IMG/VR virus record: IMGVR_UViG_3300037488_000489
Coordinates: 53,712 to 117,711 of that record
Strand: one strand, 5' to 3'
DNA length: 64,000 bases
Origin: a virus
Taxonomy: Duplodnaviria > Heunggongvirae > Uroviricota > Caudoviricetes
A program made the position numbers and the translations under genes. Of the stretch, positions 9,920 through 27,740 are shown piece after piece. Below the pieces are notes generated by a model. The model was not told where the DNA came from. It saw only the letters and a program-made list of their open reading frames with translations, and made no database searches. How positions within the stretch are numbered: position 1 is the stretch's first letter; every line of letters begins with the position of its first letter.

Positions 9920-9979
9920 GATTCATGTTTAATAAAAAAGCCCCACATTTCTGTGAGGCTTTTGTTGAGGATTTATATT

Positions 9980-10855: not shown

Positions 10856-10879
10856 TGTTTTCTCTGTTTTTGTTTATGA

Positions 10880-11551: not shown

Positions 11552-11554
11552 ATT

Positions 11555-13033: not shown

Positions 13034-13036
13034 GTT

Positions 13037-15343: not shown

Positions 15344-15593
15344 TTAAATTTTTTAGTTCTAATTTAGACATAACACCGCTTTGTCTGAATATCTTTTCTT
15401 CACCTTTCATAATAATGATAGTAGGTATACTAGTAATTAAATACTCCTGAGCAAATATTGGTGTATCATCAATATCTATTCTTTGTACATCAATATCATC
15501 ATATTGATCTACCACTTCATTAAATGCTGGTTTAAACACTTTACATGGTCCACACCATGGTGCACTAAAGTACATCACTTTCAAATTGCTCAT
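15327..15593 (-). CDS. trxA: thioredoxin
   Basis: Active site 'WCGPC' at the expected position ('YFSAPWCGPCKVFKP'). 88 aa, thioredoxin-fold spacing. Confidence 0.85.
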   Translation of the reverse strand: MSNLKVMYFSAPWCGPCKVFKPAFNEVVDQYDDIDVQRIDIDDTPIFAQEYLITSIPTIIIMKGEEKIFRQSGVMSKLELKNLIDANR

Positions 15594-15861
15594 CTGCTTT
15601 AGTTTTATTGTTTATGTATAATCTTAATGTTTTGCCTGTATCTTCAAGCATTGCGTAAACCTTATTTCTAGGTCCCCAGTTATAATATTTAACAACACCG
15701 TTCTCAACAACTTCTAATTGTGTAACCAGTGTAGTGTTTAAAATATTTTTACTTATTAGCCTAATACCTTTTATATCTTTTGTTGTTACTTTTCTATTTA
15801 GCATAATATGTTGTTTATTCTGCTGCGTAACCAAAGAACACCCACTCACCATCTCTTTCAT
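15565..15861 (-). CDS. hypothetical protein (98 aa)
   Basis: ORF in array. Confidence 0.4.
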   Translation of the reverse strand: MKEMVSGCSLVTQQNKQHIMLNRKVTTKDIKGIRLISKNILNTTLVTQLEVVENGVVKYYNWGPRNKVYAMLEDTGKTLRLYINNKTKADEQFESDVL

Positions 15862-16375
15862 TGGTGGCTTTCTTATATGTTATTCTAGCTACTGTTTTAT
15901 TACCTTTATCAAGACTCTTTTCCATACATATATATGTAGAACTTTGATGTTTTTCTGTATAAGCTCTAGCTTTTGTTACAGCTTCACCTTTTGTATCACA
16001 AGATGTAATCATTCGTAATCCATCGTCATACACTACATATTTAAGAACCCATTTCTTTGTACCAGGTGTTACAACGTGCTCCACTTGTGACTTGGTCTTG
16101 TTTTTATTACCAACAGGTTGTCTAAGACATATAGCTGAACAATCACGTTTGCTCATACTATGACTATCAAATCTATTATATATGTAAGCAGATACATCAT
16201 TAAACTTACTTTTCTTATATTCTTCTGTTTCATCTCTGAATCCACTTGTAGTACTAATAGTACCATTGTATCCTTCTTGATGACCATATTCATCTTCAGC
16301 TATTTCACATGCTTTTCTATATGCTGCTTCTGCTGTTTTACCAGTACTTCTTGTTTTAAATTGTGTTGCTCCCAT
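15815..16375 (-). CDS. hypothetical protein (186 aa)
   Basis: ORF in array. Confidence 0.5.
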   Translation of the reverse strand: MGATQFKTRSTGKTAEAAYRKACEIAEDEYGHQEGYNGTISTTSGFRDETEEYKKSKFNDVSAYIYNRFDSHSMSKRDCSAICLRQPVGNKNKTKSQVEHVVTPGTKKWVLKYVVYDDGLRMITSCDTKGEAVTKARAYTEKHQSSTYICMEKSLDKGNKTVARITYKKATNERDGEWVFFGYAAE

Positions 16376-16386
16376 AATTAACTGTT

Positions 16387-16641
16387 TTAGTTTTTAATAC
16401 GTAATCCAAATTGTAAATCCCACCATTGAAAGGTACTTTCAGCTCTTGATTTATTACATTTAAACACCTTTTTAATTAGTGGTAATGCATAAGCTTTGAA
16501 TGCTTCATGTTGTTCTTCTGTCATGGTCCATTTGCTGTACCATTCTTTTGTCATGTGAGCTTCCTGGATAGACTTACCAACCATTTCTAGTTGATAGTCT
16601 ACCAAATGCTCACCAATGTTTTCTCTATTTATCTTTGCCAT
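16387..16641 (-). CDS. hypothetical protein (84 aa)
   Basis: ORF in array. Confidence 0.45.
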   Translation of the reverse strand: MAKINRENIGEHLVDYQLEMVGKSIQEAHMTKEWYSKWTMTEEQHEAFKAYALPLIKKVFKCNKSRAESTFQWWDLQFGLRIKN

Positions 16642-16952
16642 TAGAATGTATCTATTTGTTTAATTATTTCATCATAGTCATAGATGTCTTCTTCTTGATC
16701 TGCTTTCATTAATAGTTTTGCAGCTACTTTAGCACATTTCTTAGCTGTATCTATACCTGTATATGGATCTTGTCCTATAATTGGTAGGAATTCCATTACT
16801 AGTTCTGCTGCTTTGTGTTTGTTGTCCATGTTATAATTGTTTAGCTTTTTCAATGAAGAATTTAATAGTGGCAAGCTCTGCATCTTCATAGCTTGCATTG
16901 TTTTGCAATAACTGTGTTGTATGATAGTCATTGACAGGTGTGTGACATACAA
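16641..16952 (-). CDS. hypothetical protein (103 aa)
   Basis: ORF. Overlaps 16831..17193 out of frame; one of the two may be mis-started. Confidence 0.35.
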   Translation of the reverse strand: MYVTHLSMTIIQHSYCKTMQAMKMQSLPLLNSSLKKLNNYNMDNKHKAAELVMEFLPIIGQDPYTGIDTAKKCAKVAAKLLMKADQEEDIYDYDEIIKQIDTF

Positions 16953-17193
16953 CTATGTTTGTACTACCTATTGAATATCTAAGATCGTACTTCTCTCTGA
17001 AAAATCTAAATGCCTGTCTATATGTAGGAGCGTGGATTAGATTGGTCATATTAATAGACATGTTTCTATATATATTCCATTTTAATTCTAAATCCTCATC
17101 TTTCTCTCCTAAATAATGTGCAGCACATTTTTCATTAAAGCCTAACTCTTTAAGGTCTTTTGATTCTTGATATGGTAAAAATTCTTTTTCCAT
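16831..17193 (-). CDS. hypothetical protein (120 aa)
   Basis: ORF directly downstream of the polymerase gene (1-nt overlap). Confidence 0.4.
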   Translation of the reverse strand: MEKEFLPYQESKDLKELGFNEKCAAHYLGEKDEDLELKWNIYRNMSINMTNLIHAPTYRQAFRFFREKYDLRYSIGSTNIVVCHTPVNDYHTTQLLQNNASYEDAELATIKFFIEKAKQL

Positions 17194-19145
17194 TAGAATA
17201 ATGTCATTTGATTGGGATTAATAATAATTTTTCTTTTTTTACCTTCTAATTGTATCTTATGTACAATACGCTCAGCACGCTCTATATAATATGCGTGATT
17301 AATGTTATCCAGAGGATGGTCTTTGGTTAATTTATTACAAACTGTCATTAGCCATTCACCTGCTTCTACTTGACTCACATCTGCTGCATTAGTTGTACAA
17401 TCAGGATTTTTTATCTTTAAGAGTTTCTCTCCTGTATTAGATACATAATAACGAATCAACTTGTTGTACACTGTTCTTTTAGCACCAGCTACACCTTCAT
17501 AATGAAAGTCTTTACTAGCCTTCTGCCTTAATGCAAAATCATATATATTATTATGATTGGTGATAGTGTCAGCAATAGGTATATTGTGAACAAAATACTG
17601 TTCAAGAGCCATAGGAATAACACGACCAGACTTATTTTTATGTAGCTCAAAATCTGTGAGGAAATCTCCTTTCTTTTTAATTTCTCCATTTGTTTTAATT
17701 GCTAAATAGTCATTTACTGTTGAGAATATAATCTTAGCATAGTCTGTACGCTCTAGTTCATATGTAGTTAAATCCATCCACCACTTATTAAGCTCATGCA
17801 TCTTATCAATCTTGTTCTTATCAATCTGAATTGTAACACCATCTGTGTTAGCTGATATAACATGTATACCATTCAATTCATACTGTTCAATCAACATTAA
17901 TAGACTCAATTCACCTGTAATAGTAGTGAACATAGTTAGTTGTCTATCATAGATCCAGTTCTGCATATCAGAGCTTTTACCATACACAGAGTTAACTGCT
18001 AACTTCAATGCTCCAACAATACCTGCTATCTTCTTATCCTTCTTAGCTAAAGGTTTGAGTTCTAGTCTCTTCTCAAACATCTGTTTGTATCCTCTAAGAA
18101 ACTCTTTACCTAAATGCTGTGGATATTTACCATTGTTAATGATAATAGCTGGATAGTATGAACTAACATCCCAATCAATGATTTCTACATCTTCATCAGC
18201 CTCAAATATCTTGGGCTTGTTTTCTGTATGTAAACCACCCTTGGCAAATGTATATGTATTATTATAGAACACTAATGACTCTTTAAAATCATCAGTCATT
18301 GTAAAGATTTGTTTCTTTACATGCTTTAAGAATGCTTGCAGCTCTGGTGTCTGGAATGTTACATAATCAGCAATACAATTTCTAGCTTTAACATCTTTAC
18401 GAAAGTATCCTTTCTTTGGTAGATCGCTGTATTGTATACCTTTCTCTGAACAATAATACTTCTTAATCATTTCGTCACCAATCTTACTATCAGAATAGTT
18501 AAGACATGGTATACCAAACTCTTCTTCAATATCTTGTCTGAGCTCTATTTGATTATTACCCTTATATAATGGATGTTCAGTGTTACCTGTTGTTACCAAA
18601 TAGAATTCATAAGTGGCATATATATCATTGCGACAGTAATCAATAGTTAGTTCTATTTCATCATCAGTCATGTTAGTCTTTGTGTGATGGATAGGCATCT
18701 CTTCAATGTTCTCTAGATCCATCTCAAACTCTAATCGTTTCAATGATACACGTCTGTTCTTATTATCATAATGATTAACTCTAAACAAATCTATTTGCTT
18801 ATTAGATAACCATTCTTCCCTATATTCTGGGAATACATCATAGTTTGCATCATGTATTATGTCTGCAGCCTTCTGAGCTATCAATGCACATACATCTAGT
18901 GCACCTATCTCATGCCAGTTCTGATGATTGCGTATGATCCACTCAACTACTTGACTGTCAAAGCGTAGATTGTTATAACCTACCCAATAGAAGTCTTTAT
19001 AGTCTTCTGTGAATCTAACAAACGCATCAATCTGGTTTGTATTTTTACTCACCTGGAATTCATGCCATTGCTGTGTTTCAGGATTATATATACAAACTAG
19101 AAACAGCTCCTGCATGGTTTCTATGTCATAGATGAGTACGTTCAT
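17193..19145 (-). CDS. family-B DNA polymerase (compact, 650 aa) with 3'-5' exonuclease domain
   Basis: Exo I 'LIYDIET', Exo II 'YNNLRFDSQ', Exo III 'YCRNDIYATYE', motif A 'DWDVSSYYPAII' (DxxSLYP), motif B 'KLAVNSVYGK' (Kx3NSxYG), motif C 'ISANTDGV' (NTDG in place of DTDS). Confidence 0.85.
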   Translation of the reverse strand: MNVLIYDIETMQELFLVCIYNPETQQWHEFQVSKNTNQIDAFVRFTEDYKDFYWVGYNNLRFDSQVVEWIIRNHQNWHEIGALDVCALIAQKAADIIHDANYDVFPEYREEWLSNKQIDLFRVNHYDNKNRRVSLKRLEFEMDLENIEEMPIHHTKTNMTDDEIELTIDYCRNDIYATYEFYLVTTGNTEHPLYKGNNQIELRQDIEEEFGIPCLNYSDSKIGDEMIKKYYCSEKGIQYSDLPKKGYFRKDVKARNCIADYVTFQTPELQAFLKHVKKQIFTMTDDFKESLVFYNNTYTFAKGGLHTENKPKIFEADEDVEIIDWDVSSYYPAIIINNGKYPQHLGKEFLRGYKQMFEKRLELKPLAKKDKKIAGIVGALKLAVNSVYGKSSDMQNWIYDRQLTMFTTITGELSLLMLIEQYELNGIHVISANTDGVTIQIDKNKIDKMHELNKWWMDLTTYELERTDYAKIIFSTVNDYLAIKTNGEIKKKGDFLTDFELHKNKSGRVIPMALEQYFVHNIPIADTITNHNNIYDFALRQKASKDFHYEGVAGAKRTVYNKLIRYYVSNTGEKLLKIKNPDCTTNAADVSQVEAGEWLMTVCNKLTKDHPLDNINHAYYIERAERIVHKIQLEGKKRKIIINPNQMTLF

Positions 19146-19268
19146 ATAATTTTATTAATTGTTCAACTTTTAAATATACAGTGGGAAATTGTGATGGTTT
19201 ATACCATTTATCATCCTTATACCTAACATAATTGTTTTTTGTTATCCATTCTAATAAATCTAACATAA

Positions 19269-19484
19269 TTAAAATTGTATTGAAGGTGTAACGAATCCAA
19301 ATTTTATAGGCTCACCTAATTCATAAATTTCAAGCTTACCATCAGCATCTAAATATGTATCAGGATTTTCATTGAAATCATCAATGATATCTTGTTTTGT
19401 ACCTACTACCCATGCTTCTGTATTTTCATATATTACAACATATTGCTTTTGTTTAGCTGGTTGAACTACTTTTTTCTTTTTCAT
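19269..19484 (-). CDS. hypothetical small protein (71 aa)
   Basis: ORF. Confidence 0.4.
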   Translation of the reverse strand: MKKKKVVQPAKQKQYVVIYENTEAWVVGTKQDIIDDFNENPDTYLDADGKLEIYELGEPIKFGFVTPSIQF

Positions 19485-19486
19485 AA

Positions 19487-19648
19487 TTAGTTTCGTTTAT
19501 TTCGTTTAGATTGATACACTGCTCTTACTTCATCTAATTTCTTTAAGAATTCTCTGTTCTCAGAGCGTTCATTGTCCCACAACGTGGATACATTAAACTT
19601 GCGTGCCCAATCATTAAATGTTATTTGTTGTTCTATTTTAGTTGCCAT
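19487..19648 (-). CDS. hypothetical small protein (53 aa), paralog of 22241..22429
   Basis: Manual translation MATKIEQQITFNDWARKFNVSTLWDNERSENREFLKKLDEVRAVYQSKRNKRN. Shares the 'F(N/T)DWA(R/K)' motif with the 62-aa protein at 22241..22429. Below the ORF-track size cutoff. Confidence 0.3.
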   Translation of the reverse strand: MATKIEQQITFNDWARKFNVSTLWDNERSENREFLKKLDEVRAVYQSKRNKRN

Positions 19649-19887
19649 TATTCTGTTTCGTTAGTATGTATATTCTTAAACTTATCTGCAGCTATGCTGT
19701 CTTGTTCTTCTAATAGCTCTAATGCTATTTCATATCTGGTAAGGTTTACATTACTAATATATAGTTCGTCATATATTGAGTCTACTCTGTTCTGTAGAAT
19801 AGTATTCTCTCTCTTTAAGCTTGCTGTTTCATAACCAGCTGCAAATAACACAATTGCTGCTATTGCAAGTAATATTGCTGTTTTCAT
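19648..19887 (-). CDS. small membrane-anchored/secreted protein (79 aa)
   Basis: N-terminal hydrophobic segment 'MKTAILLAIAAIVLFAAG', then a charged helical region. Confidence 0.45.
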   Translation of the reverse strand: MKTAILLAIAAIVLFAAGYETASLKRENTILQNRVDSIYDELYISNVNLTRYEIALELLEEQDSIAADKFKNIHTNETE

Positions 19888-20041
19888 AGGTTATTTGTAT
19901 GTTTTAATATATTCTTTAATGCACCATTTAATCATGTCCCAGATGTAATATCTTTGCTTAGATTTAGTTAGTTTGTGTAAACCCTCATAATATGTAAAAT
20001 ATTTATTCATAATATGTAATTTATTGCACTAAATTAGAAAT

Positions 20042-20314
20042 TTATTTCTTTTTTGCTGCTTTTTTCACTGTTTTAGGCACTATATTGCTCTTTTTAGAAC
20101 TATATTTCTCTTTTCCTTCAAGAGTTGTTAGTAATGCAGCACTAATTATTTTAAGCAATTCTTCATCTTGTTCCATTGCACTTGCAAATGCAGCACCAAG
20201 ACCAGCACCATTATTCATATCATCACTATATATAACGTCTACATGATTACCATTTACGTTCATAAAGAAATGAGCACTAATGTCTTTTACTTTTAAGGTT
20301 TTACTTTTTGCCAT
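20042..20314 (-). CDS. hypothetical protein with Lys-rich C-terminus (90 aa)
   Basis: ORF ending '...TVKKAAKKK'. Confidence 0.45.
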   Translation of the reverse strand: MAKSKTLKVKDISAHFFMNVNGNHVDVIYSDDMNNGAGLGAAFASAMEQDEELLKIISAALLTTLEGKEKYSSKKSNIVPKTVKKAAKKK

Positions 20315-20347
20315 GTTTGTGTTTGTTTAATTGTTAATGTTTAATTG

Positions 20348-20758
20348 TGGAGGTGAGGGGAGTTGAACCCCTGTCCAGACAAGTGATAATAATACCATTC
20401 TTACATGCTTAGATCTGAAGCTGTTCATGTACATTTACTTAGAGCAATTACAATGTATTACTACATAGTCCTAAGCACTTCTAATCAGTAGTTGGGATCG
20501 CAGGTCTTGCTATCTACCACCACTCTATTTTGACATAATAGAGAAAACGCTTGTAACTTTCTGTTGCCAGGTTGTTACCACCCCGTTGACTAAGCTGCTA
20601 ATGCATACTCAGTAGCGAAGATAGAAGCTAAGATAGCTTCACCTTCTGCAACACGCTCAGATTGACTCTTTACGGTTATTGTTTAGAACTTGTTTACCTG
20701 TTCCAAGGCTTGCATGTGATACTACCAGCCTCATGTCTGTCAAAGCCAGTACACCCCC
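20348..20758 (-). ncRNA. ssrA: tmRNA (ssrA), phage-encoded
   Basis: Minus strand 5' end GGGGGUGUACUGGCUUUGACAG (consensus GGGGcUGauucUGGaUUcGAC). 3' end GGACAGGGGUUCAACUCCCCUCACCUCCA has a T-arm and 7-bp acceptor with G3:U70. Internal tag frame GCA GAA GGU GAA GCU AUC UUA GCU UCU AUC UUC GCU ACU GAG UAU GCA UUA GCA GCU UAG ends ...ATEYALAA-stop. Confidence 0.8.
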
Positions 20759-20759
20759 A

Positions 20760-20957
20760 TTATATATGTCTATCTAAAGATATATTCTTACAGAATCTGA
20801 TTTCTTTATTGCTCAATGTCCATATCTCACCATTATCCATGGCACATGTAAATAAAAGATTATGCTCTTGGCTATAGTCTATAACCAAGAAAGCATAACC
20901 TTCCATTTCATCAGAATATCTCATGATAGGTATCATTGGATTCAGTTGGAGAATCAT
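20760..20957 (-). CDS. hypothetical small protein (65 aa)
   Basis: ORF ending 2 nt from the tmRNA 5' end; coding status uncertain. Confidence 0.3.
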   Translation of the reverse strand: MILQLNPMIPIMRYSDEMEGYAFLVIDYSQEHNLLFTCAMDNGEIWTLSNKEIRFCKNISLDRHI

Positions 20958-21068
20958 TCTTTTTCTTTTTAATTATGTTACCATTCTTATCCATGAATGG
21001 AGCCCTATGAAATTCATAGGACATCCATACAAAGATAGCTAGTAACACAAATATAACGATATATACCA

Positions 21069-21287
21069 TTATTTGTAGAATTTAGCTCTGATAAATTTAG
21101 ACTTTTCTTGTGTATACTCATTTGTAGGTGTATACATATATCTACCATTCTTAATCTGTAATCTATTAGCAGCTGTTTTAGCTGCAGCATTACGATAGAT
21201 GGATTCAATTAAGTTATCTGCACTTGGTACGTAACTTAGCACTTGTATATGTGCATAGTCTTTACTAGATCCAATTAATGTTGCCAT
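21069..21287 (-). CDS. hypothetical small protein (72 aa)
   Basis: ORF downstream of the ParB-like gene. Confidence 0.35.
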   Translation of the reverse strand: MATLIGSSKDYAHIQVLSYVPSADNLIESIYRNAAAKTAANRLQIKNGRYMYTPTNEYTQEKSKFIRAKFYK

Positions 21288-21292
21288 GATTG

Positions 21293-22099
21293 TTATTTTA
21301 ATTTTGTGAATAATTCAACCAATTTACCATCTTCTTGTGTAGCTAATACAAACTCTTTCTTGTTTTTCTTAAGGTTTTCTAAGAACTTAGGATGATTATA
21401 TTTGCTTGTACCTCTTACAAATTTAACGTATTCTCTACATAAATATTTGTTTTCAAATCTATTCATTCTAGGAACAACCTTCAATACATCTGTTAAATTG
21501 TTTAATATGTTGATATTCTTTGCCTCATCAACTATTTTAAACTCTCCACATTTGATTCTTCTAGTGATATTACCACCATCTGATACATTATTACATAATA
21601 TAGAAGATAATACACCCATGTCAAAATCATATACTTGGTAGTAATGATTAAGCTTTACATAATCAGGAACTAATGAGCTCCATGCTGTAATGTAATCAGT
21701 TAGAGCCCAGTTCTTAGATGATGCATTCAATAATGCAATCTTCTCTACTAGTTCTACCTTGTCTTTTACAGTGATTATTACATATGGAATGTCCATGTTG
21801 TTTCTAATCAACGCATTAAACAAATGCTGACCATCAATGATGTAAGTTTTCTTTTTACCATCAATAAATGCTATTTCAGCTGCTACAACAGGTCTAATAA
21901 TACCCATTCTGTTTACTGAATTTGCTAATTTAGTCACCTGAGCTGGATTAATAGCTCTGTTAATACCTGCTAGGTAATAAAATGACTGTTTACTGTCTTT
22001 TTTCAATGTTGAGATTTTCATGTTTTCTGTGTTTATTTTTAGATTTTTTATAATGTCTACTAGCTTGTTGTTGTCTAAGTACTTGCTTAGGTGTGTCAT
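21293..22099 (-). CDS. ParB-like nuclease domain protein
   Basis: ParB/Srx N-terminal domain pattern 'IRPVVAAE...YIIDGQHLFNAL' (DGxH(R)xxA). Confidence 0.55.
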   Translation of the reverse strand: MTHLSKYLDNNKLVDIIKNLKINTENMKISTLKKDSKQSFYYLAGINRAINPAQVTKLANSVNRMGIIRPVVAAEIAFIDGKKKTYIIDGQHLFNALIRNNMDIPYVIITVKDKVELVEKIALLNASSKNWALTDYITAWSSLVPDYVKLNHYYQVYDFDMGVLSSILCNNVSDGGNITRRIKCGEFKIVDEAKNINILNNLTDVLKVVPRMNRFENKYLCREYVKFVRGTSKYNHPKFLENLKKNKKEFVLATQEDGKLVELFTKLK

Positions 22100-22241
22100 C
22101 CATTGTTAGTTGTATTACCTGGGATCGTGGTTTAAGTGGTAATGGTATACTAAGAAAGCTCATTGCTCCCTTATCTACATTATCTTTATATCTACCATCT
22201 ATAAACTTACGTTCACCTGGTTTAGCATCTATCCTTTTCAT
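21990..22241 (-). CDS. hypothetical basic protein (83 aa)
   Basis: ORF overlapping the ParB-like gene start by about 110 nt; may be mis-started or non-coding. Confidence 0.25.
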   Translation of the reverse strand: MKRIDAKPGERKFIDGRYKDNVDKGAMSFLSIPLPLKPRSQVIQLTMDDTPKQVLRQQQASRHYKKSKNKHRKHENLNIEKRQ

Positions 22242-22429
22242 TACGCAAGAGTTAGTTGTTTTAGATATTTTACTTGTCTTTCTCTATCCCATAAATTCAT
22301 CATGTCTTGAGCCTTATCTGTTAGTTTGGATCTGTTATATGCAATACCAACTCTAAGTTCTTTAGCCCAATCAGTAAATGATAATTGTTTGTCAGGATAG
22401 ACAGTTGATTGTGTTTTAATGTTCTCCAT
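22241..22429 (-). CDS. hypothetical small protein (62 aa), paralog of 19487..19648
   Basis: Shares 'SFTDWAKE' and 'WDRERQ' with 'TFNDWARK' and 'WDNERS' of the other copy. Confidence 0.4.
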   Translation of the reverse strand: MENIKTQSTVYPDKQLSFTDWAKELRVGIAYNRSKLTDKAQDMMNLWDRERQVKYLKQLTLA

Positions 22430-22456
22430 AATTAAATTGATTAATAATTAAATAAA

Positions 22457-23062
22457 TTAGTCTTCTGGTTCATCATCTGGATTATCATCCATTTCATCCC
22501 AATCTTCTTCAGGATAGTCATCTTGCTCATACAAATAGTCATCCTCATCCCATAATAGTCTAAGTGTTGCCTTATCCATGTATAGAATTGGAACAGCTAA
22601 GCCATCTTCAAAGGCTAAGTCTTCTATTTCTATCTCAAGCTCACCATTATAATCTGATAGTATGAGATTGATATCTTTGAGCTCTATGTCTCTAAGTTCA
22701 TCTGTACCTGGTCCTTCATCCCACCAACCTATTTGATCAGGTGATGCTAATACATCAGCTTTAATATCAGGATTGGCTGTGAATGATACAACCACAGGCA
22801 TAACAGGACAACCATTTAGTTGTACATAAGCTTCCTGATCTTCTGGTGTATGACCTAATAGAAACAGTCTATCATATGTATATCTTTTACCATATATGAC
22901 ATCTGTAATTGTTTGTTTGAACCACATGCCTGGTTTTAGTTTTTCAGGCATATATGAGTCAAACGTTAGTTTTGCTTTTATGTACATAATTTGTTTATTT
23001 AATGATGAAATAAATAAGGACCCAGCTAGGGGAAGCTGAGCCCTATATTTACCAACACACAC
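22457..23062 (-). CDS. hypothetical protein with poly-acidic C-terminus (201 aa)
   Basis: ORF ending 'EDWDEMDDNPDDEPED'. Confidence 0.5.
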   Translation of the reverse strand: MCVGKYRAQLPLAGSLFISSLNKQIMYIKAKLTFDSYMPEKLKPGMWFKQTITDVIYGKRYTYDRLFLLGHTPEDQEAYVQLNGCPVMPVVVSFTANPDIKADVLASPDQIGWWDEGPGTDELRDIELKDINLILSDYNGELEIEIEDLAFEDGLAVPILYMDKATLRLLWDEDDYLYEQDDYPEEDWDEMDDNPDDEPED

Positions 23063-23217
23063 ATCTAAAATCCTAATAGCTCTAAATCTTGTGCATTAGC
23101 CTCAATTGAGACTACGGTGTGTTTAATACTTTCTATTCTATATTTAAACTTTGCTATCATCTTAAATATATAGAACTCCTGAGGTGTTAACTGTATTGTT
23201 TTCATCTTATTGCTATA

Positions 23218-23487
23218 TTAATGTGAGTTTTTAGATAGGTTAAATCTAACCTTTGTGTCTTTAATTTGATCTAAACATTCATCATAACCCTTAAAATAGT
23301 AATATGTTTCCAATCTACATATATAACTATCAATAAGTAAATAACCTCCAACATATCCAATAGCGGACATTAGAGAAATTAAAGCAAGCTTCTCATTGCT
23401 GTATTCAACAGCTAATGGAAAGAGTATGATTAAAACTGTGGTAATAATCATCATGGTGATACCAAGGTACAATTCAAATTTTTTCAT
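23218..23487 (-). CDS. small membrane protein (89 aa, about 2 TM)
   Basis: Hydrophobic segments 'ITMMIITTVLIILFPLAV' and 'LISLMSAIGYVGGYLLI'. Confidence 0.45.
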   Translation of the reverse strand: MKKFELYLGITMMIITTVLIILFPLAVEYSNEKLALISLMSAIGYVGGYLLIDSYICRLETYYYFKGYDECLDQIKDTKVRFNLSKNSH

Positions 23488-23683
23488 AAATAATGTGCGT
23501 TAAATGATTTATTTTGATGTATTGTTTAATAACTATTGCAATGAGTATAAAGATAAACAATGGTATAGCGATGTAAAACACTATTATATTGATTTCTCTA
23601 TATGTAAACCCTGTCATATGAGCTAGATAGAATAATCCATCTACACTGATGTCATACAACCAATCTGTAAGTGATTTAGACAT
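23474..23683 (-). CDS. small membrane protein (69 aa)
   Basis: Hydrophobic segment 'IIVFYIAIPLFIFILIAIVI'. Confidence 0.45.
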   Translation of the reverse strand: MSKSLTDWLYDISVDGLFYLAHMTGFTYREINIIVFYIAIPLFIFILIAIVIKQYIKINHLTHIIYEKI

Positions 23684-23689
23684 AATGTA

Positions 23690-23968
23690 TTAGTTGTCTA
23701 TGTATTCAAATACAAACTTATTGTAAGTTGTGTCATATATAACCATCATCATTGTAGGATTTGTTCTATCCTTAGATGTGGTCTCTATGTTAAACTCTTC
23801 AGGCATGTCATAGAAGCTTCTGTCTTGAGCCATATGACTAATCTTGTACTCATCATACACTACACATATAGTGAGCAGTATGATAATAATTAAATATAAT
23901 CTTTTCATAATGTGTGTTAATTGATTGATTAATAATGTGTTGTAAAAAATATAGATTTTGTGCCTCAA
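23690..23968 (-). CDS. small membrane/secreted protein (92 aa)
   Basis: Signal-anchor-like 'MKRLYLIIIILLTICVV' after a possible internal start. Confidence 0.45.
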   Translation of the reverse strand: MRHKIYIFYNTLLINQLTHIMKRLYLIIIILLTICVVYDEYKISHMAQDRSFYDMPEEFNIETTSKDRTNPTMMMVIYDTTYNKFVFEYIDN

Positions 23969-24066
23969 TCTACAAAGCCTCTGATCAATGAAGTAGAACA
24001 GATAAACTCCTATAATATATGTAATCTTACCTTTGGTACGCTAAAGGCTAATAACGAAAGAATACA

Positions 24067-24381
24067 TTAACGCTTGTAATAATATGGTTTAACGTGCTGT
24101 TGCTTGTAGAAATATTGTTGATCATTAGAAGGACATGTCTGTCTAATAGTTGTACATGACACTAATGATAACATTGCTGCTACAAATGCAAATGTTTTAA
24201 AACTCTTCCAGAAATCTATTTCTTGTCTAAGGTCCTTAATAATAACAAACAATAGACATACAATAGCTGAAAGGATAAATATAACACCTAACATCAAATG
24301 TGATGGTGTTGGTGCTGTAAGTAATAAATAACTACCTGCTGATGAGCTAATAATAGTCATTGATGCGAATACAAATTTCAT
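24067..24381 (-). CDS. small membrane protein (104 aa, about 3 TM)
   Basis: Three hydrophobic stretches and a basic C-terminus. Confidence 0.45.
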   Translation of the reverse strand: MKFVFASMTIISSSAGSYLLLTAPTPSHLMLGVIFILSAIVCLLFVIIKDLRQEIDFWKSFKTFAFVAAMLSLVSCTTIRQTCPSNDQQYFYKQQHVKPYYYKR

Positions 24382-24383
24382 AA

Positions 24384-24611
24384 CTAATTGGTTTTAAATA
24401 ATTTAATAGATTCAAAGTCTTTATCATCCCCAGACATATATATAATAGACATCATCATAAAGTAGAATGCGTAACATATAATGTAAGGAGTGGAAGTAAT
24501 AGCATCTTGGTATACAAATGCAAATCCTGTAACTAATAAGAAGAATAAGACTATAATATAAGGTATAGTCCATAGAGCTAATAAGTTAGCAATGTGTTTG
24601 ATTAAGTTCAT
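24384..24611 (-). CDS. small membrane protein (75 aa, about 2 TM)
   Basis: Hydrophobic segments 'LLALWTIPYIIVLFFLLVTGFAFV' and 'YIICYAFYFMMMSIIYM'. Confidence 0.45.
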   Translation of the reverse strand: MNLIKHIANLLALWTIPYIIVLFFLLVTGFAFVYQDAITSTPYIICYAFYFMMMSIIYMSGDDKDFESIKLFKTN

Positions 24612-24619
24612 GTGTTGTG

Positions 24620-24988
24620 TTATTTAGCTGTGATTGTTAATGTGTTATATCCTAATTCAAGTTCAAATGTAGCATGATAGCAATTAAAGCCCTCTACATC
24701 CTTAATAGTCTCCATAGAAAATGTCTTACCTTGAAACATAAGATGATCATGACCAGTAGTAATAAGATTATCATCTTTATCATAGACACTAATCTTACAC
24801 CATTTATATTCATCATCCCATATCTCATTAGTATGAACTATTCTAATAGAGTCAAATGTTTTTGTTTCTCTCATATAATTGTTATTTAATGCTATATATA
24901 TTGTATTGTATAGCATGATTGATGAATAGTTATTTGGTATACATAAACCATGTGAGGGTGACACACCTATTCTCACATTCACAAACAA
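24620..24988 (-). CDS. hypothetical protein (122 aa)
   Basis: ORF preceded upstream by tandem CCCA(A)CCCTAT(A/G)TA repeats at 25030..25075. Confidence 0.45.
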   Translation of the reverse strand: MFVNVRIGVSPSHGLCIPNNYSSIMLYNTIYIALNNNYMRETKTFDSIRIVHTNEIWDDEYKWCKISVYDKDDNLITTGHDHLMFQGKTFSMETIKDVEGFNCYHATFELELGYNTLTITAK

Positions 24989-25109
24989 ATTGTAAATAGT
25001 GAGAGAGTTTTGTTGTTTTACAAGCCCAACCCTATATAATGTGCCATTATGCCCACCCTATGTATAAAAACAAGAGGACAATCAATTGATTATCCCCTTG
25101 TTAATTAAA

Positions 25110-25550
25110 TTACAATGCAATTAGGTCTTGATGATTAACTGCTTTGGTGCTCACTGCCACGGTCTTTAATTCAGATGCGTTGAATTTAACAACACCTGTT
25201 CCTGGCATACTGATGTAATTGATTCCATTCTGATCTTCAAGGATAGAATAGTCTGCTAACTCAGATAATGTGATGTTCTTAGCTCTAAGGTCTCTACTAA
25301 CAGACTCAGAACAGCTGATGCTAATAGACTCTGGTTGTCCATTCTCAGCAATCTTGCCATTGTACACTAATACTAAGACACGATTGTAAACCATTTCGCC
25401 CTTAGCATTGAGTTTAGTCTCACGCTTTAAGTTAGACGGAATCAAACCTAATGCACCCTTCTCAGTCATAAGGTCTCTAACACTACCGTTGTTAACTAAT
25501 GTAGTTGCTGTTGCAGAAGCTTGGTAAGCTTGGAAAATTGGTAAAGCCAT
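25110..25550 (-). CDS. hypothetical early protein (146 aa)
   Basis: Second ORF of the leftward early operon. Preceded by a terminator and AGGWGGKGTATC repeats. Confidence 0.5.
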   Translation of the reverse strand: MALPIFQAYQASATATTLVNNGSVRDLMTEKGALGLIPSNLKRETKLNAKGEMVYNRVLVLVYNGKIAENGQPESISISCSESVSRDLRAKNITLSELADYSILEDQNGINYISMPGTGVVKFNASELKTVAVSTKAVNHQDLIAL

Positions 25551-25621
25551 AATACTTGGTTGGTTGACCTACACACCATAAGGTTTTTGATTGTTTATTG
25601 TTATGTTAAAATACTCAGGTT

Positions 25622-25647
25622 GCAGGAGGGGTATCAGGTGGTGTATC
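25622..25647. repeat. tandem 12-mer repeat GGAGGGGTATC/AGGTGGTGTATC (AGGWGGKGTATC family)
   Basis: Two adjacent copies. Same family as the two copies at 26232..26274. Confidence 0.6.
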
Positions 25648-25655
25648 TATAAGTT

Positions 25656-25687
25656 GGTGGAAAAAGAGAGAGCTGTTACACTCTCTC
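25656..25687 (-). terminator. rho-independent terminator after first early gene (minus strand)
   Basis: Minus strand reads GAGAGAG-TGTAACAG-CTCTCTC then TTTTT. Lies 6 nt downstream of the stop of 25694..26107. Confidence 0.5.
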
Positions 25688-25693
25688 TTAATT

Positions 25694-26107
25694 CTACAAC
25701 CAAATGTTTTCCTCTTTGACAATAGACTTAACTATTTCAGTCATTCTCAACTCAAACTCATCACTATTCTTACGAGGTTTAGATCCTAATACTGTATTAA
25801 TCCTAATGGTGTTCTTCTTACTATCGTGCTTGTTAAAGTAGATTGTAAGACCATTAGTCTTAATTTTACCATTGCGACCATTATCATCTAATGTCACAAC
25901 AGCCTTGTCCAAACCTAATGCTTCCATTGGTAGCGTTAAGATTGGTAAATTCTCATCAAGGCTTAGTTGATCAGGATAACAGCATTCATCAAGCTTTAAT
26001 TGTTTAAAGCCATCAATCATTCTTGGATTAACAAAGAAATGAGTAATGCCATCTAATGGATTAGTTACCATCATCTTCTTGAAATCATAATAGAACTGCA
26101 TAATCAA
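25694..26107 (-). CDS. hypothetical immediate-early protein (137 aa)
   Basis: First ORF leftward of the divergent control region. Flanked by CAGGTGGGGTATC-type repeats and followed by its own terminator. Confidence 0.5.
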   Translation of the reverse strand: MIMQFYYDFKKMMVTNPLDGITHFFVNPRMIDGFKQLKLDECCYPDQLSLDENLPILTLPMEALGLDKAVVTLDDNGRNGKIKTNGLTIYFNKHDSKKNTIRINTVLGSKPRKNSDEFELRMTEIVKSIVKEENIWL

Positions 26108-26231
26108 AAGTTTTAAAGATTAATAAATTTAGCAAAGTTGTTTTTATCATAAAACTCATCAACCTTGCTAAGGGGCTGATTAAAAAAAAGGTCAATCTTG
26201 CTATTTTAAAGCAGTGTTTGATACTAATGAT

Positions 26232-26274
26232 CAGGTGGGGTATCCCCAACCTCTCAATTCACAGGTGGGGTATC
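26232..26274. repeat. two direct copies of CAGGTGGGGTATC spaced 30 bp apart
   Basis: Exact 13-mer at 26232..26244 and 26262..26274. GC-rich motif in an AT-rich genome. Confidence 0.7.
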
Positions 26275-26988
26275 AAGCAGTAGTACCCTCTCCTCCCTTG
26301 GACAAGGGGGGTTGTTAAGTTGGAAAAAAAATTTTGTAAAATGTTCCACAAGGAACGTTGGGTATAATCATCTGAGGACCAATGGGTTAACATGCCCCTG
26401 TGTTAAATGTTTGCATGAATTTTTCCAAATGTTGCATGCACATTGTGTCACACTTTTTCAAATATTTGTGACATTCTTGTAACATATTTATAGTACTATT
26501 TGTTACAGACTTCCAGGTTTGGCAGTCTTTCACTTCCTAGATTGTCAAGTTTTTGGATCAGGAAACTTGACACATTTGTCCAGTTTTATCAATCAAAATC
26601 TGGACATTTGTCAATCAATAGCTTTACTTTAGTTTACGTTTTGTCAAGCAATTGCTTTACATAATGTGTCTTATAAGGGACATGCTCAGCTTAACAATGT
26701 TGCTTTTATAACACATTAAGATATGTTATGGTATGTAGTGATGGAATGTTGCACCAAAATTATAAACTCTTGTAGTATCAAAATTAGAAAATTCTGCAAG
26801 TTTTGATAATAGCCAAAAATAAATTTGGTGGTTACAAAAAAGTCTTCGTAACTTTGGGGGGGATTTAGGGGGGGCCCTAAGTACATCTAATCAGCTAATA
26901 CACTATCTACAATTTATTGGTAGAATATAATGGATTATAAAAATAGTGCATAATATAGCATTCCTATTCCAGATAACTAAAATAGTTA

Positions 26989-27019
26989 TTTGACAATCAA
27001 AGGAATATACATACCTTTG
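26989..27019 (+). promoter_or_regulatory. Bacteroidetes-type sigma-A promoter (-33 TTG / -7 TACCTTTG) for rightward module
   Basis: TTG at 26989-91, 19-nt spacer, TACCTTTG at 27012-19. Matches the Bacteroidetes consensus TTG-N19-TAnnTTTG. First gene ATG at 27032. Confidence 0.5.
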
Positions 27020-27031
27020 CTTTAACTAATT

Positions 27032-27394
27032 ATGGAACCAACAGACAACAAGAAGCTAATTGTTCAGAAAATGAAGAGACCAGTGGGGGATTCCTACGCT
27101 GTGGCTGAGAAGTATTACAATATACTGTCAGCTGTGAATGGTCTTGGATTGACAGAACGTGAGGTGCAATTGATCGCTTTCACAGCCATCAAGGGTAACA
27201 TCTCCTATGCCAATGTCCGTCAAGAGTTCTGTGAGAAGTACAAAAGTTCGCCTCCAACCATCAACAACATCATCTCCAAGCTTAAACGTATTGGTGTATT
27301 TGTCAAGGACGGTACCAAGGTGAAGGTCAACCCAGTCATCATCCTAGACTTTGAGAAAGACATTGTCTTACAAATAACCGTAAGTCATGGATAA
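27032..27394 (+). CDS. hypothetical protein (120 aa), first gene of rightward module
   Basis: ORF directly downstream of the predicted promoter. Confidence 0.5.
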   Translation: MEPTDNKKLIVQKMKRPVGDSYAVAEKYYNILSAVNGLGLTEREVQLIAFTAIKGNISYANVRQEFCEKYKSSPPTINNIISKLKRIGVFVKDGTKVKVNPVIILDFEKDIVLQITVSHG

Positions 27395-27740
27395 GCCAAT
27401 CTCAATGTCAGTGAAGGATTATCTAGTCAGGACACTAGCTGTTAAGATGATGGTTTCAGAGAAGACAATTGAGACAGTGGTCAATCATCAGTTCCAATCA
27501 GCCAATGAGGCAATGGACTTAAATGACAGCATAGAAATTTCTGGATTTGGAAAGCTCTTCTTTAATAGAAAGAAGGCAGGAAAAAAGGTGGAGAAGCTGA
27601 ATGCTAAAAAGCTAGCCATGGAACGTATTATTGATGATGTTAATACGTCTGAACAAAAGAGAAAGTCTTCTATTGTCACATTAGAGAAGACAATAGTGCA
27701 AATAAACCAACTTAAACCAAGAACTACATATGAAGATTAA
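27387..27740 (+). CDS. HU/IHF-like DNA-binding protein
   Basis: HU pattern: helical N-terminus then 'IEISGFGKLFFNRKKAGKKV' (cf. [20 protein letters not shown]). Confidence 0.5.
   Translation: MDKPISMSVKDYLVRTLAVKMMVSEKTIETVVNHQFQSANEAMDLNDSIEISGFGKLFFNRKKAGKKVEKLNAKKLAMERIIDDVNTSEQKRKSSIVTLEKTIVQINQLKPRTTYED

Follow-up and report, generated by a model that had tools for sequence, protein, structure and literature searches.

A G-quadruplex-type tract joined to a Bacteroidota-type promoter in the divergent control region of an uncultured phage distantly related to crAss-like phages

The stretch of phage DNA analysed here, 64 kb in length and called the window in the following, contains a long non-coding region between its leftward and its rightward genes, with repeats, dyads and two runs of seven guanines separated by ATTTA. 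An initial annotation, made from the sequence alone, regarded this region as a candidate replication origin or repressor-operator hub and proposed that the G-runs could form G-quadruplex (G4) DNA or be prone to slippage. Which of these roles fits the region, and what is the function of such a G-rich tract in an AT-rich phage? We addressed this question by comparing the region (26102-27031) with 160 related IMG/VR loci.

The phage is an uncultured, distant relative of the crAss-like phages and its host probably belongs to the Bacteroidota. Its TerL shares 26-33% identity with those of crAss-like and Cellulophaga phages. The nearest cultured phage is Leptolyngbya phage Lbo-JY46 (40% TerL identity), which likewise has a block of small genes ahead of TerL, and no DNA similarity to GenBank phages was found. 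All genes of the left arm are located on the minus strand (among them those for DNA polymerase, primase, a DnaB-like helicase, Sak4 and rIIA/B), and all genes of the right arm on the plus strand (TerL, portal, major head protein and tail fibre). The claim that no ORF of 60 aa or more exists in between is correct, as the stretch from the minus-strand ATG at 26101 to the plus-strand ATG at 27032 has none longer than 56 aa. Since all frames contain 18-24 stops each, of mixed TAA, TAG and TGA type, no ORF is rescued by any single stop-codon reassignment, and hidden coding of this kind is ruled out. Rfam covariance models detected no known RNA family or tRNA between 26000 and 27150 (E ≤ 1), and scans for sigma-70-type promoters and intrinsic terminators gave hits at or below chance level. 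The GC content of the region is 33%, which equals that of the genome and agrees with the earlier estimate, and the motifs listed initially were found in their places, with the exception of the copy number of ACATTTGTC (see below).

Judged from the relatives, the region is divided into three parts, namely the end of a swappable cassette, a dyad and repeat array of about 580 bp, and the right 210 bp (approximately) with two promoters (Table 1). Our best reading, which we hold with slightly better than even confidence, is that of a region controlling divergent transcription, leftward into the replication/recombination arm and rightward into the packaging/structural arm, in which a promoter-embedded G4/R-loop element would control the packaging/structural operon.

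Table 1. Sequence features in and around the divergent control region (positions refer to the window)
Feature	Position	Strand	Remarks
5' region private to the variable cassette gene 25694-26101	26102..26231	-	common to L001 only
Weak leftward promoter candidate, TTG-N19-CAACTTTG	26162 to 26133	-	read from sequence
CAGGTGGGGTATC direct repeats	26232-26244, 26262-26274	+	exact pair
Left-boundary elements, conserved	26286..26356		homologues in L009 (GTTCCACGTGGAAC), L012, L019, L023, L034
C-rich/G-rich dyad CCCTCTCCTCCC...GGGGGG	26286-26311		
A8T4 tract	26324-26335		
Palindrome GTTCCACAAGGAAC	26343-26356		
Dyad cluster	26412..26507		block conserved in alignment
Dyad TGCATGAA...TTGCATGCA	26412-26440		
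Four 7-bp palindromes TGTNACA	26446, 26467, 26478, 26501		spacing 21, 11 and 23 bp
Two ACTTCC-N-GRTTTGKCA direct repeats and two dyads	26510..26611		
Second dyad TTTGTCCAG...CTGGACATTTG	26572-26611		
21-nt repeat TTTGTCAAKCWATWGCTTTAC, three copies	26585..26660	+	each with internal 12-bp palindrome; starts 22 and 33 bp apart
Doubled 20-bp palindrome ATGTGTCTTATAAGGGACAT and degenerate copy ATGTTGCTTTTATAACACAT	26664-26683, 26697-26716		starts 33 bp apart
Two direct repeats of ~24 nt, each with CAAAATTA	26747-26790		CAAAATTA reads TAATTTTG on the minus strand
Inverted repeat TAGTATCAAAA/TTTTGATAATA	26773-26811		
P1, Bacteroidota sigma-A type	26824..26856	+	-33 TTTG (26824-26827), 21-nt spacer, -7 box TAACTTTG (26849-26856)
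G7-ATTTA-G7 (GGG-G-GGG-ATTTA-GGG-G-GGG)	26856-26874	+ (non-template)	canonical four-tract G-quadruplex motif
Clade-specific filler	26878..26946	+	half of the relatives have ~275 bp with a ~81-aa membrane-like ORF instead
P2, TTTG-N19-TACCTTTG	26989-27019 (box 27012-27019)	+	12 nt upstream of ATG 27032
First gene of the rightward operon, 120-aa winged-helix protein	27032..27394	+	AlphaFold2, Foldseek
HU-like gene	27387-27740	+ arm	adjoins the winged-helix gene

The left end differs from the remainder in its distribution, as the stretch 26102-26231 aligns in none of 67 more distant loci. Both exact copies of CAGGTGGGGTATC reported earlier are present and there is no other exact copy in the 64 kb. 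Near-copies at 25623 and 25635, on which the initial annotation did not remark, bring the total to four at a tolerance of one mismatch, and together the copies bracket a gene cassette encoding 137 aa. In L009, there is a single CAGGTGGGGTATC pair and the cassette is absent, and L003 has variant copies at the same cassette boundary. The left 130 bp belong to a swappable gene cassette whose edges are marked by the CAGGTGGGGTATC repeats.

The middle part (26232-26815) is dominated by dyads and repeats. TGTAACA and TGTTACA do lie at 26478 and 26501, respectively, but they belong to a set of four TGTNACA palindromes that had been missed, as had the doubled 20-bp palindrome. Four such sites compare with 0.52 expected and form the densest cluster of this motif in the 64 kb, and in the relatives the motif is four-fold enriched upstream of P1. 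The perfect 10-bp inverted repeat TGTCAAGTTT/AAACTTGACA was located as described (26543-26552 and 26563-26572, 10-nt spacer). Three to four recurrences had been claimed for both TTGTCAA and ACATTTGTC; this holds for TTGTCAA (26542, 26608 and 26641, with a reverse copy at 26990 and 0.19 expected from its window-wide density), but only two exact copies of ACATTTGTC exist (26572 and 26604). The 21-nt repeat TTTGTCAAKCWATWGCTTTAC occurs in one to two copies in relatives, and about 25 of the 67 more distant loci contain an alignable version of its block. The 20-bp palindrome is nearly invariant in the alignment. Of 67 anchored sequences, 36 have it (the window and 35 relatives), and it was found only upstream of P1, 43-204 nt ahead of the -33 element; there is no copy in the rest of the 64-kb window and only four weak matches (≤4 mismatches) exist elsewhere across the loci. 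The block 26747-26811 is kept as GTATCAAAACTAGAAAATCCTGCAAGTTTTGATA in L003, L006, L012, L016, L019, L020 and L036, and its elements, immediately ahead of P1, may serve as leftward -7 boxes, as factor sites or as both.

Some of the dyads would also fold as RNA. As a plus-strand transcript, the stretch 26510-26611 reaches -26.5 kcal/mol (z = -4.3), and the folding of the dyads is somewhat better on the plus strand than on the minus strand. L019 and L050 have TGTCCAG...CTGGAC at this place, with both sides altered symmetrically so that the dyad is preserved. Since such symmetric changes fit hairpins and protein sites equally well, we do not claim an RNA function for the dyads. Most likely, the dyads and repeats are protein-binding sites that constitute an operator-like array. 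The proposal of a repressor-operator hub receives indirect support, as the dyads and phased repeats are more frequent than chance predicts and are retained in relatives, and as the first gene downstream encodes a winged-helix protein. An AlphaFold2 model of this 120-aa protein (mean pLDDT 74.5) has the fold H-H-H-H-E-E, its best Foldseek match is the N-terminal domain of T4 MotA (E = 0.012), with further matches to MarR, Zur and Fur proteins, and some of its 2281 homologues are MarR-family members by JGI naming. On the basis of this model, it is a candidate for binding the palindromes. Its possible identity as a small terminase was considered as well and is not supported, the winged helix being regulator-like.

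The right part contains two promoters that match the Bacteroidota sigma-A consensus, i.e. a -33 element TTTG and a -7 box TAnnTTTG (PMC7366714, PMC9723704). The promoter that the initial annotation had placed at the right end is P2, with both elements present at 19-nt spacing; for the block that contains it (26940-27031), alignments were obtained with 34-46 of the 67 more distant loci. Overlooked was P1, a second promoter directly adjoining the G-run and the stronger of the two. The combination of TTTG-N19-23-TAnnTTTG with a subsequent G-tract was detected in 67 of 78 sequences (66 loci and the window) and in 59 of 65 loci of a second set, and TTTG-N21-TAnCTTTG is present in 126 related loci. 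Among 49 unique sequences of relatives, the spacer of P1 measures 21 nt in 47, and the -7 box reads TAAC-, TACC- or TATC-TTTG in 44. The -33 TTTG is embedded in an invariant 13-mer, AAAATAAATTTGG, and thus in more conserved sequence than TTTG alone would require. This 13-mer itself contains a perfect -7 box, TAAATTTG (26820-26827), for which no -33 TTTG was found 19-21 nt upstream, neither in the window nor in the relatives. Of the four intergenic gaps of at least 60 bp between 27 and 64 kb only one has a -7 box, and P1 and P2 are the sole full-consensus promoters in right-arm intergenic gaps of this window. Going by their position, they probably drive the operon of about 20 kb that starts at 27032. 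A covarying hairpin in the P1 spacer (GGTAA/TTACC-like) was considered and dropped as a general feature: only about half of the relatives have it, the closest clade does not, and in the window it amounts to -1.4 kcal/mol, which 47% of shuffled sequences equal.

The sequence that follows P1 is variable. In 81 of the 160 loci an ORF of about 81 aa begins some 45-60 nt past the tract, which is a normal leader length, and tblastn found no match to this ORF in the window. P1 and the tract are kept at full identity in lineages without the 81-aa ORF, which argues for a role beyond the expression of the next gene.

P1 is directly connected to the G7-ATTTA-G7 tract. The first G of the tract is at the same time the final base of the -7 box. 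The tract therefore spans approximately -5 to +14, from the discriminator across the start site and through some 14 bases of initially transcribed sequence, given a transcription start that we infer at about 26861 purely from the rule that the -7 box occupies -12 to -5 (PMC9723704). As the G-run is part of a promoter, its most likely function is no longer the one suggested at the outset. G4 prediction supports the earlier idea of a quadruplex: the G4Hunter score of 2.2 is the highest of the window, followed by 1.56 for the next best site and compared to 1.2 at the 99.9th percentile of the 64 kb, and in most related loci, too, no G4Hunter peak exceeds that of the tract. Within 20 nt past the box, there are 14 Gs at P1, compared to 1-10 at the other 98 TAnnTTTG sites of the window.

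In 126 relatives, the same position is taken by a tract of one of two classes, G7-N5-7-G7 (class 1) or GGGG-N-GG-N1-2-GGG-N-GGG(G) (class 2). The classes are interleaved among near-identical flanks, for instance L012 and L016 versus L019 and L020. The 61 unique 24-mers comprise 12 class-2 loop combinations and four class-1 spacers, and the G-tracts are fixed. All 41 unique variants of the first set contain 12-16 Gs and 0-3 Cs per 22 nt; 14 of them are canonical G4 motifs (four runs of at least three Gs on one strand, with loops of 1-7 nt) and 38 have four runs of at least two. In most relatives, three GGG tracts are combined with a single GG tract, and three of the 41 variants are without four regular tracts, which makes G4 folding less certain in these cases. 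The tract always lies on the plus strand, with no mirrored copies, and a search by the same rule for a mirrored leftward promoter with G-tract found none. Minus-strand G4 motifs after TAAATGTG were seen in two relatives only. Among the 2.9 million contigs of IMG/VR, the exact 22-mer is present in just 27, the TerL-related set accounting for at least 21 of these, and no G-tract was found at the equivalent place in Leptolyngbya phage Lbo-JY46. The contigs of several relatives (L010, L024, L040 and L054) begin in or next to the tract.

Anatomy and conservation of the tract are accompanied by a distinct pattern of selection: the tracts stay fixed while the loops, and even the sequence class, change. 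This points to selection for G-quadruplex potential and not for sequence, and the comparison thus strongly supports the suggestion that the G-runs could form G4. The suggestion that they are slippage-prone fared differently. The run lengths are G7/G7 in 21 of 22 two-run relatives and G7/G8 in one, and since they are practically invariant, the runs are not slippage switches.

How could such an element act? When P1 fires, the G-rich RNA would form an unusually stable hybrid with the C-rich template, and the displaced strand might fold into an intramolecular G-quadruplex or, together with the nascent RNA, into a DNA:RNA hybrid quadruplex. It has been described that a G-rich non-template strand can, while it is being transcribed, adopt a G4 or hybrid G4 together with an R-loop, and that transcription is altered as a result (PMC3488243, PMC4176368, PMC12137161). 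Since the G4/R-loop state would be placed directly against the -7 box, we propose that it governs how easily the next polymerase opens and clears the promoter. The outcome would be a cis-acting switch, either boosting or braking, on the operon of winged-helix, HU-like, terminase and structural genes. Both the folding of the G4 in vivo and its effect on transcription are what we infer.

Several other explanations have to be weighed against this promoter-embedded G4/R-loop element. A live if rather doubtful rival is an R-loop-primed origin, where P1 transcripts would leave a persistent, G4-stabilised RNA:DNA hybrid over 26861-26880 that is processed and then extended by the phage DNA polymerase; forks would leave both ways, co-oriented with transcription, and the repeats would bind an initiator or HU/IHF-like proteins. 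Such an origin would resemble the mitochondrial LSP/CSB II primer, ColE1 RNA II and T4 oriF and ori(uvsY). A promoter directly followed by a G-rich non-template tract is indeed the anatomy of CSB II-type priming (PMC3488243, PMC4176368), GC skew and nanopore coverage have led to predictions of origins at the strand-switch region of prototypic crAssphage (PMC10983915), and P1 and the tract outlast the loss of the downstream ORF. However, half of the relatives have an ordinary gene behind P1, separated from it by a leader of ordinary length, so that a plain promoter role is sufficient, and since the phage encodes its own primase and DnaB-like helicase, a primer made by RNA polymerase is not required. 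The 21-nt repeats with internal dyads, spaced by 22 and 33 bp and close to the adjoining HU/IHF-like genes, could be iterons, but their copy number (1-3) is low. While a perfect DnaA box is located 22 nt upstream of the -33 element in ten relatives, the region of the window has none (≤1 mismatch) and the boxes are not enriched in the relatives (0.29 versus 0.36 per kb). An AT-rich unwinding anomaly is absent, too, the GC content being that of the genome. The cumulative GC skew of the window has its minimum at about 25-26 kb, but since this coincides exactly with the switch in gene orientation, it is not independent evidence. That the tract itself is the replication origin, with P1 RNA as leading-strand primer via a hybrid G-quadruplex, would by analogy mean that a large clade of Bacteroidota phages arrived independently at the CSB II solution, with the frequent 'vacancy' pattern GGG/GG/GGG/GGG perhaps also rendering the switch sensitive to free guanine nucleotides, and this we regard as rather improbable. 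The same low probability is given to an element at the RNA level, in which the tract (as a whole or its 3' two-thirds) would form an RNA G-quadruplex or a G-rich cap-like structure at the 5' end of the operon mRNA and control mRNA stability or translation of the first gene. If TAAATTTG fires as a -7 box, transcription would start near 26832 and the whole tract would be part of the leader (+25 to +43), which would favour such a role. ViennaRNA with G-quadruplex energies folds most variants as RNA G4 (-9.7 to -16.7 kcal/mol), the tract is always on the sense strand, and the RNA of the window clade could form the pairing UUAGGG-GGGG-CCCUAA. Nevertheless, it is the downstream box and not TAAATTTG that has a -33 TTTG at the proper distance, in 126 loci, and a start at about 26861, as predicted, would leave no more than two to three G-tracts in the transcript. 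Moreover, the tract is kept although lineages differ in the first gene, which is either the 81-aa ORF or the winged-helix gene, and in how far away this gene lies (about 45 to 170 nt), and the CCCTAA partner is conserved within the window clade but not beyond it.

It could also be that no quadruplex is involved and that the tract is a G-rich discriminator plus initially transcribed sequence, read by sigma factor and RNA polymerase or by a phage factor, which tunes open-complex life, GTP-dependent initiation or promoter escape. Work on E. coli sigma region 1.2 established that a G-rich discriminator alone stabilises open complexes, and this effect could account for the first four Gs, which occupy the discriminator position (-5 to -2), without any G4. 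The tract always abuts the -7 box, and GGGTGGG in nearly all class-2 variants might be a sequence-specific contact. On the other hand, class 1 (G7-ATTTA-G7) and class 2 (GGGGTGGAGGGTGGG) have nothing in common except for the G-tracts, yet they interchange between near-identical flanks, and the loops vary freely while the tracts do not. Each variant contains 12 or more Gs, the number for three tetrads, where a discriminator needs three to four; we place little confidence in this explanation. A packaging signal or genome end, finally, would be a pac1-like site of terminase recognition or cleavage upstream of the terminase operon, at which the nearby repeats and HU/IHF-like proteins build a packaging complex as at lambda cosB. 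In herpesviruses, pac1 has G-rich runs on either side of a T-rich core, and G4 formation is possible for every pac signal of this group (PMC13595911). The tract is located 2 kb upstream of TerL, and of 80 related contigs 43 are cut within 10 kb upstream of TerL, compared to six downstream; the four mentioned above start in or beside the tract. But only two of about 16 near-full-length contigs (102-118 kb) start in the region. The first 34 nt of L010, a contig of 113.9 kb that starts inside the G-run, occur once in that contig, so there is no sign of a terminal repeat there, and the sequence just upstream of the run was found only in a sister contig. Other contigs start at several G/C runs of the region, which points to sequencing or assembly failure and strain variability. 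The class-2 tract of most relatives is without a T-rich core, GGGGTGGAGGGTGGG-type tracts replacing the G/T/G layout even where TerL is 83-90% identical, the tract is fused to a canonical promoter, and the first downstream gene resembles regulators and no recognisable small terminase. A pac site is thus unlikely, and we attach hardly any weight to it.

For eukaryotic promoters and some viral ones, there is good documentation of functional G-quadruplexes, whereas they are contested in bacteria and, to our knowledge, nearly undocumented in phages. An AT-rich phage clade, comprising hundreds of metagenomic genomes, that keeps a G4-type tract joined to the -7 box of the promoter heading its packaging/structural operon is of interest for this reason. 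If the preferred reading, a promoter-embedded G4/R-loop element, is true, the locus would be a natural switch of G4/R-loop type that overlaps the start site and is read by a bacterial RNA polymerase, a candidate origin of replication for this phage group and a compact regulatory part for synthetic biology in Bacteroidota. The analysis also accounts for the other motifs of the region, the CAGGTGGGGTATC repeats as cassette edges and the dyads as an operator-like array.

Several known systems share aspects of the region. Like lambda OR-type operators and the MotA-dependent promoters and origins of T4, it is compact and contains several dyads next to the gene of a small DNA-binding protein. However, there are about ten types of dyads instead of one repeated operator, the structural match to MotA is weak (E = 0.012), and repressor, integrase or lysogeny genes were not seen. 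With herpesvirus pac1 it shares the layout of a G-run, an A-T-rich core and a second G-run with G4 potential, the two virus groups belonging to the same realm and having related terminases (PMC13595911), but the T-rich core is missing in most relatives, and the phage element is part of a promoter, with no fixed genome end evident there. The crAss-like phage phi14:2 relies on the host RNA polymerase for its middle and late genes, its long intergenic regions are strongly transcribed, and related crAss-like genomes have a promoter motif upstream of homologues of the phi14:2 IHF-subunit gene (10.1101/2020.03.07.982082). That motif is tripartite and -35/-10-like, without a reported G-tract, and thereby differs from P1.

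The class-2 variants GAGGGTGGAGGGTGGGGAA are almost identical to the core of c-MYC NHE III1 (Pu27), and they likewise have 1-nt loops and are located in a promoter. In contrast to c-MYC, the motif belongs to a bacteriophage with a genome of 33% GC, lies at -5 to +14 and not upstream of the promoter, and its second tract is usually GG. The mitochondrial CSB II is situated about 100 nt downstream of LSP, serves as terminator and primer site, and is transcribed by a T7-like RNA polymerase. It consists of two long G-runs (G6AG8) on the non-template strand shortly past a promoter, as in the phage, and its G4 or hybrid G4 with the nascent RNA stabilises an R-loop (PMC3488243, PMC4176368). The phage tract differs in that it overlaps the start site of a promoter for a multisubunit polymerase, and a priming role is only a proposal here. 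Further counterparts are the Bacteroidota sigma-A promoters, whose two elements are matched by P1 and P2 at 21- and 19-nt spacing, respectively, with conserved position and orientation upstream of genes. P1 alone is set apart from these promoters by a -33 element that lies within the invariant AAAATAAATTTGG and by the 12-16 Gs within 22 nt that directly follow its -7 box.

As the initial annotation had claimed, the gap between the minus-strand start codon at 26101 and the plus-strand start codon at 27032 is non-coding, its longest ORF comprising at most 56 aa. Stop-codon reassignment is known in crAss-like phages and was therefore considered here. However, every one of the six reading frames is interrupted by 18-24 stops, with all three kinds represented, and reassignment therefore cannot hide a gene. 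Neither a tRNA nor a match to an Rfam family is present in the region. The described motifs were confirmed at their positions (see table), and TTGTCAA recurs with three copies and one reverse copy, where 0.19 are expected. The sole overstated detail concerns ACATTTGTC, for which we counted two occurrences instead of three to four.

All left-arm genes lie on the minus strand and include those for DNA polymerase, primase, a DnaB-like helicase, a SNF2 helicase, Sak4, an exonuclease and rIIA/B. All right-arm genes lie on the plus strand; the genes for a winged-helix protein and an HU/IHF-like protein come first, followed by small ORFs, TerL (phrog_6681), portal, major head protein and tail fibres. 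TerL shares 40% identity with Leptolyngbya phage Lbo-JY46, 33% with the Cellulophaga phages phi17:2 and phi4:1 and 26-29% with crAss-like phages, and no GenBank phage matches the window at the DNA level. Judging from these comparisons, the phage belongs to an uncultured clade whose relationship to the crAss-like phages is distant. From the promoter type we infer a Bacteroidota host.

TerL searches of IMG/VR yielded 160 related loci (some contigs being fetched twice) with TerL identities of 79-100%. All of them share the gene order of the right flank, whereas the genes of the left flank vary even where TerL is 99% identical. Mapping the conservation among these relatives onto the window divides the 924-bp region into the segments listed in the table.

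Features of the divergent region and of selected genes in the window
Feature	Position (strand)	Remarks
HNH endonuclease gene	2641-3057 (-)	phrog_1985, E = 3.8e-24; between rIIB-like and exonuclease genes; probably a mobile insertion
tmRNA gene, full-length	20345-20758 (-)	within replication arm; Rfam RF00023, 87.1 bits (gathering score 47); tag peptide by ARAGORN VKSQSERVAEGEAILASIFATEYALAA
CAGGTGGGGTATC-like 13-mers	25623, 25635, 26232, 26262	the latter two are exact CAGGTGGGGTATC copies
Hairpin AGAGAGAG...CTCTCTCT	25665-25689	
137-aa gene	25694-26101	
Cassette-side stretch	26102-26231	belongs to neighbouring gene cassette; common to L001 only
CAGGTGGGGTATC repeats	26232-26274	two copies
Chain of conserved dyads and repeats	26286-26815	
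C-rich/G-rich dyad, A8T4 tract, palindrome GTTCCAnnnGGAAC	within 26286-26815	conserved
Four TGTNACA palindromes		spacing 21, 11, 23 bp; densest cluster in 64 kb; 4-fold enriched in relatives
TGTAACA; TGTTACA	26478; 26501	
Perfect 10-bp inverted repeat	26543-26552 / 26563-26572	
Two adjoining long dyads		one altered symmetrically in relatives: TGTCAAG/CTTGACA to TGTCCAG/CTGGACA
21-nt repeat		22/33-bp spacing
Doubled 20-bp palindrome ATGTGTCTTATAAGGGACAT		upstream of P1 in 35 relatives; almost nowhere else in loci
P1 + G-tract	26817-26874	promoter 26824-26856 (+); G7-ATTTA-G7 26856-26874
Filler	26878-26946	ORF of about 81 aa here in half of relatives
P2	26989-27019 (+)	TTTG-N19-TACCTTTG, 12 nt before winged-helix gene
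Winged-helix gene	27032-27394 (+)	120 aa

The 137-aa gene, its own promoter region and a hairpin are enclosed by the four CAGGTGGGGTATC-like 13-mers, and L009 possesses a single CAGGTGGGGTATC pair and lacks the cassette. By this comparison, the repeats look like gene-cassette boundaries, that is, the insertion/deletion borders of a swappable gene. In L052 (7108-7578) and L061 (7101-7571), a gene of 156 aa whose product combines T5orf172/MUG113 (GIY-YIG-like) and HTH_3 domains lies directly upstream of P1 and resembles an insertion of the homing-endonuclease type. In about half of the relatives, a membrane-like ORF of approximately 81 aa with hydrophobic ends separates the G-tract from the winged-helix gene (L013, 350-595; L050, 7833-8075; 79 other loci); it was lost in several lineages including that of the window.

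The consensus of the Bacteroidota primary sigma factor is TTTG-N19-21-TAnnTTTG, with the box at -12 to -5 (PMC7366714, PMC9723704). In every relative an invariant AAAATAAATTTGG occurs upstream of the G-run, and exactly 21 nt after its TTTG follows TAACTTTG, TACCTTTG or TATCTTTG. The last G of this -7 box is the first G of the G-tract. From the position of the box, transcription from P1 is predicted to start at about 26861; on the non-template strand the G-tract would then cover roughly -5 to +14. This promoter layout leading into a G-rich tract is shared by 67 of 78 sequences of a first set (66 loci and the window) and by 59 of 65 loci of a second set, 126 loci altogether. P2 likewise matches the consensus, in agreement with the Bacteroidetes-type promoter annotated at the right end. 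Only four intergenic gaps of at least 60 bp exist in the right arm, just one of them with a -7 box, and the nine such gaps of the left arm (9920-25693) contain no TAnnTTTG box in gene orientation. Thus, P1 and P2 appear to be the principal promoters from which the host polymerase reads the packaging and structural arm. The same scan suggests that host sigma-A promoters do not serve the replication/early arm; this arm is probably read by another polymerase, by analogy with phi14:2, whose early genes are read by a polymerase other than that of the host (10.1101/2020.03.07.982082). A perfect DnaA box TTATCCACA, absent from the window, has a fixed place in one sub-clade only (L045, L046, L050, L056, L058, L059, L065, L066, L068, L069), preceding the -33 element of P1 by 22 nt.

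The predicted structure of the winged-helix protein (mean pLDDT 74.5) most closely resembles the T4 MotA N-terminal domain as well as MarR, Zur and Fur proteins, all weakly (E ≥ 0.01). The top match is the N-terminal (activation) domain of MotA (1bja, E = 0.012, TM 0.52/0.64), the middle-promoter activator of T4, and this weak model-based likeness beside a special promoter is suggestive. The conserved, enriched dyad array and the adjoining winged-helix gene fit a factor-controlled promoter and lend indirect support to the regulatory, repressor-operator-like hub proposed before.

With a G4Hunter score of 2.2 (next 1.56), the G-run pair is the highest peak of the 64-kb window, and it is an outlier among the 99 -7 boxes of the window. 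In most related loci, too, the tract at this place is the top peak; it invariably lies on the plus strand and occurs in two classes: G7-N-G7 with the spacers ATTTA, AAAAA, AATACAA or AATAAAA, and G3-5/N1-2/GG/N1-2/GGG/N/GGG(G), for instance GGGGTGGAGGGTGGG and GAGGGTGGAGGGTGGGG. The classes swap between near-identical flanks (L012/L016 versus L019/L020). The 61 unique 24-mers comprise 12 loop combinations, with the tracts fixed throughout. All 41 variants of the first set have 12-16 G and at most three C per 22 nt; four G2+ tracts are present in 38 and canonical G3+ tracts in 14 of them. This pattern supports the proposed G4-forming potential and points to selection on the G-tracts rather than on the sequence. 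The suspected slippage is not borne out: G7 is exactly GGG-N-GGG and run lengths are constant (G7/G7 in 21 of 22), which argues for a structural constraint and against slipped-strand phase variation. Among 2.9 million IMG/VR contigs only 27 contain the exact two-G7 motif, and at least 21 of these were already in the TerL-related set. P1 and the tract persist in lineages devoid of the 81-aa ORF, so their role is not tied to it. In L050 (about 6497-6520) and L023 (about 6423-6446), a canonical minus-strand G4 motif GGGTGTAGGGGTCAGGGGTTGGGG directly follows TAAATGTG at a distance of approximately 1.3 kb to the left of P1. This minus-strand motif, absent from the window, may represent a leftward counterpart of P1 and its tract.

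An R-loop-primed replication origin appears rather unlikely to us. The anatomy would fit the CSB II, ColE1 or T4 oriF type, the GC-skew minimum of the window fits as well, and for prototypic crAssphage published predictions place origins at the strand switch (PMC10983915). However, GC skew cannot be disentangled at all from gene orientation, DnaA boxes show no enrichment, the region has no AT-rich anomaly and the phage encodes its own primase. An RNA-level role of the G-tract could arise if the upstream TAAATTTG is the active -7 box; this box lacks a -33 partner, however, and such a role is improbable. Equally doubtful is a pure effect of the discriminator or initially transcribed sequence, which accounts for four Gs but leaves twelve or more unexplained.

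A packaging signal resembling pac1 (PMC13595911) is very improbable, despite the G/T/G layout, the several contigs starting in or beside the G-tract and a striking excess of contig ends, with 43 of 80 loci truncated in the 10 kb upstream of TerL versus six of 80 downstream. The T-rich core is missing from most relatives, other G/C runs of the region also serve as contig starts, near-full-length contigs rarely begin here and no terminal repeat was found. Starts in or beside G or C runs of the region are very frequent among contigs of relatives, as in L010, L054, L024, L040, L138, L013, L136 and L127. The breaks probably reflect sequencing or assembly failure at such runs together with strain variability at the cassette boundary.

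We therefore lean, with some reservation, towards filing the G-tract with promoter-associated G-quadruplex/R-loop elements. After initiation at P1, the G-rich RNA would pair with the C-rich template and displace the G-rich strand, and the resulting R-loop might contain an intramolecular or DNA:RNA hybrid G-quadruplex. Because this structure would abut the -7 box, it would be expected to alter promoter opening or clearance for the following polymerases. Such G4 and R-loop formation has been demonstrated for other G-rich non-template strands (PMC3488243, PMC4176368, PMC12137161). Within this class the element would represent a new variant, owing to its overlap with the start site, its bacterial-type polymerase and its conservation across a large phage clade.
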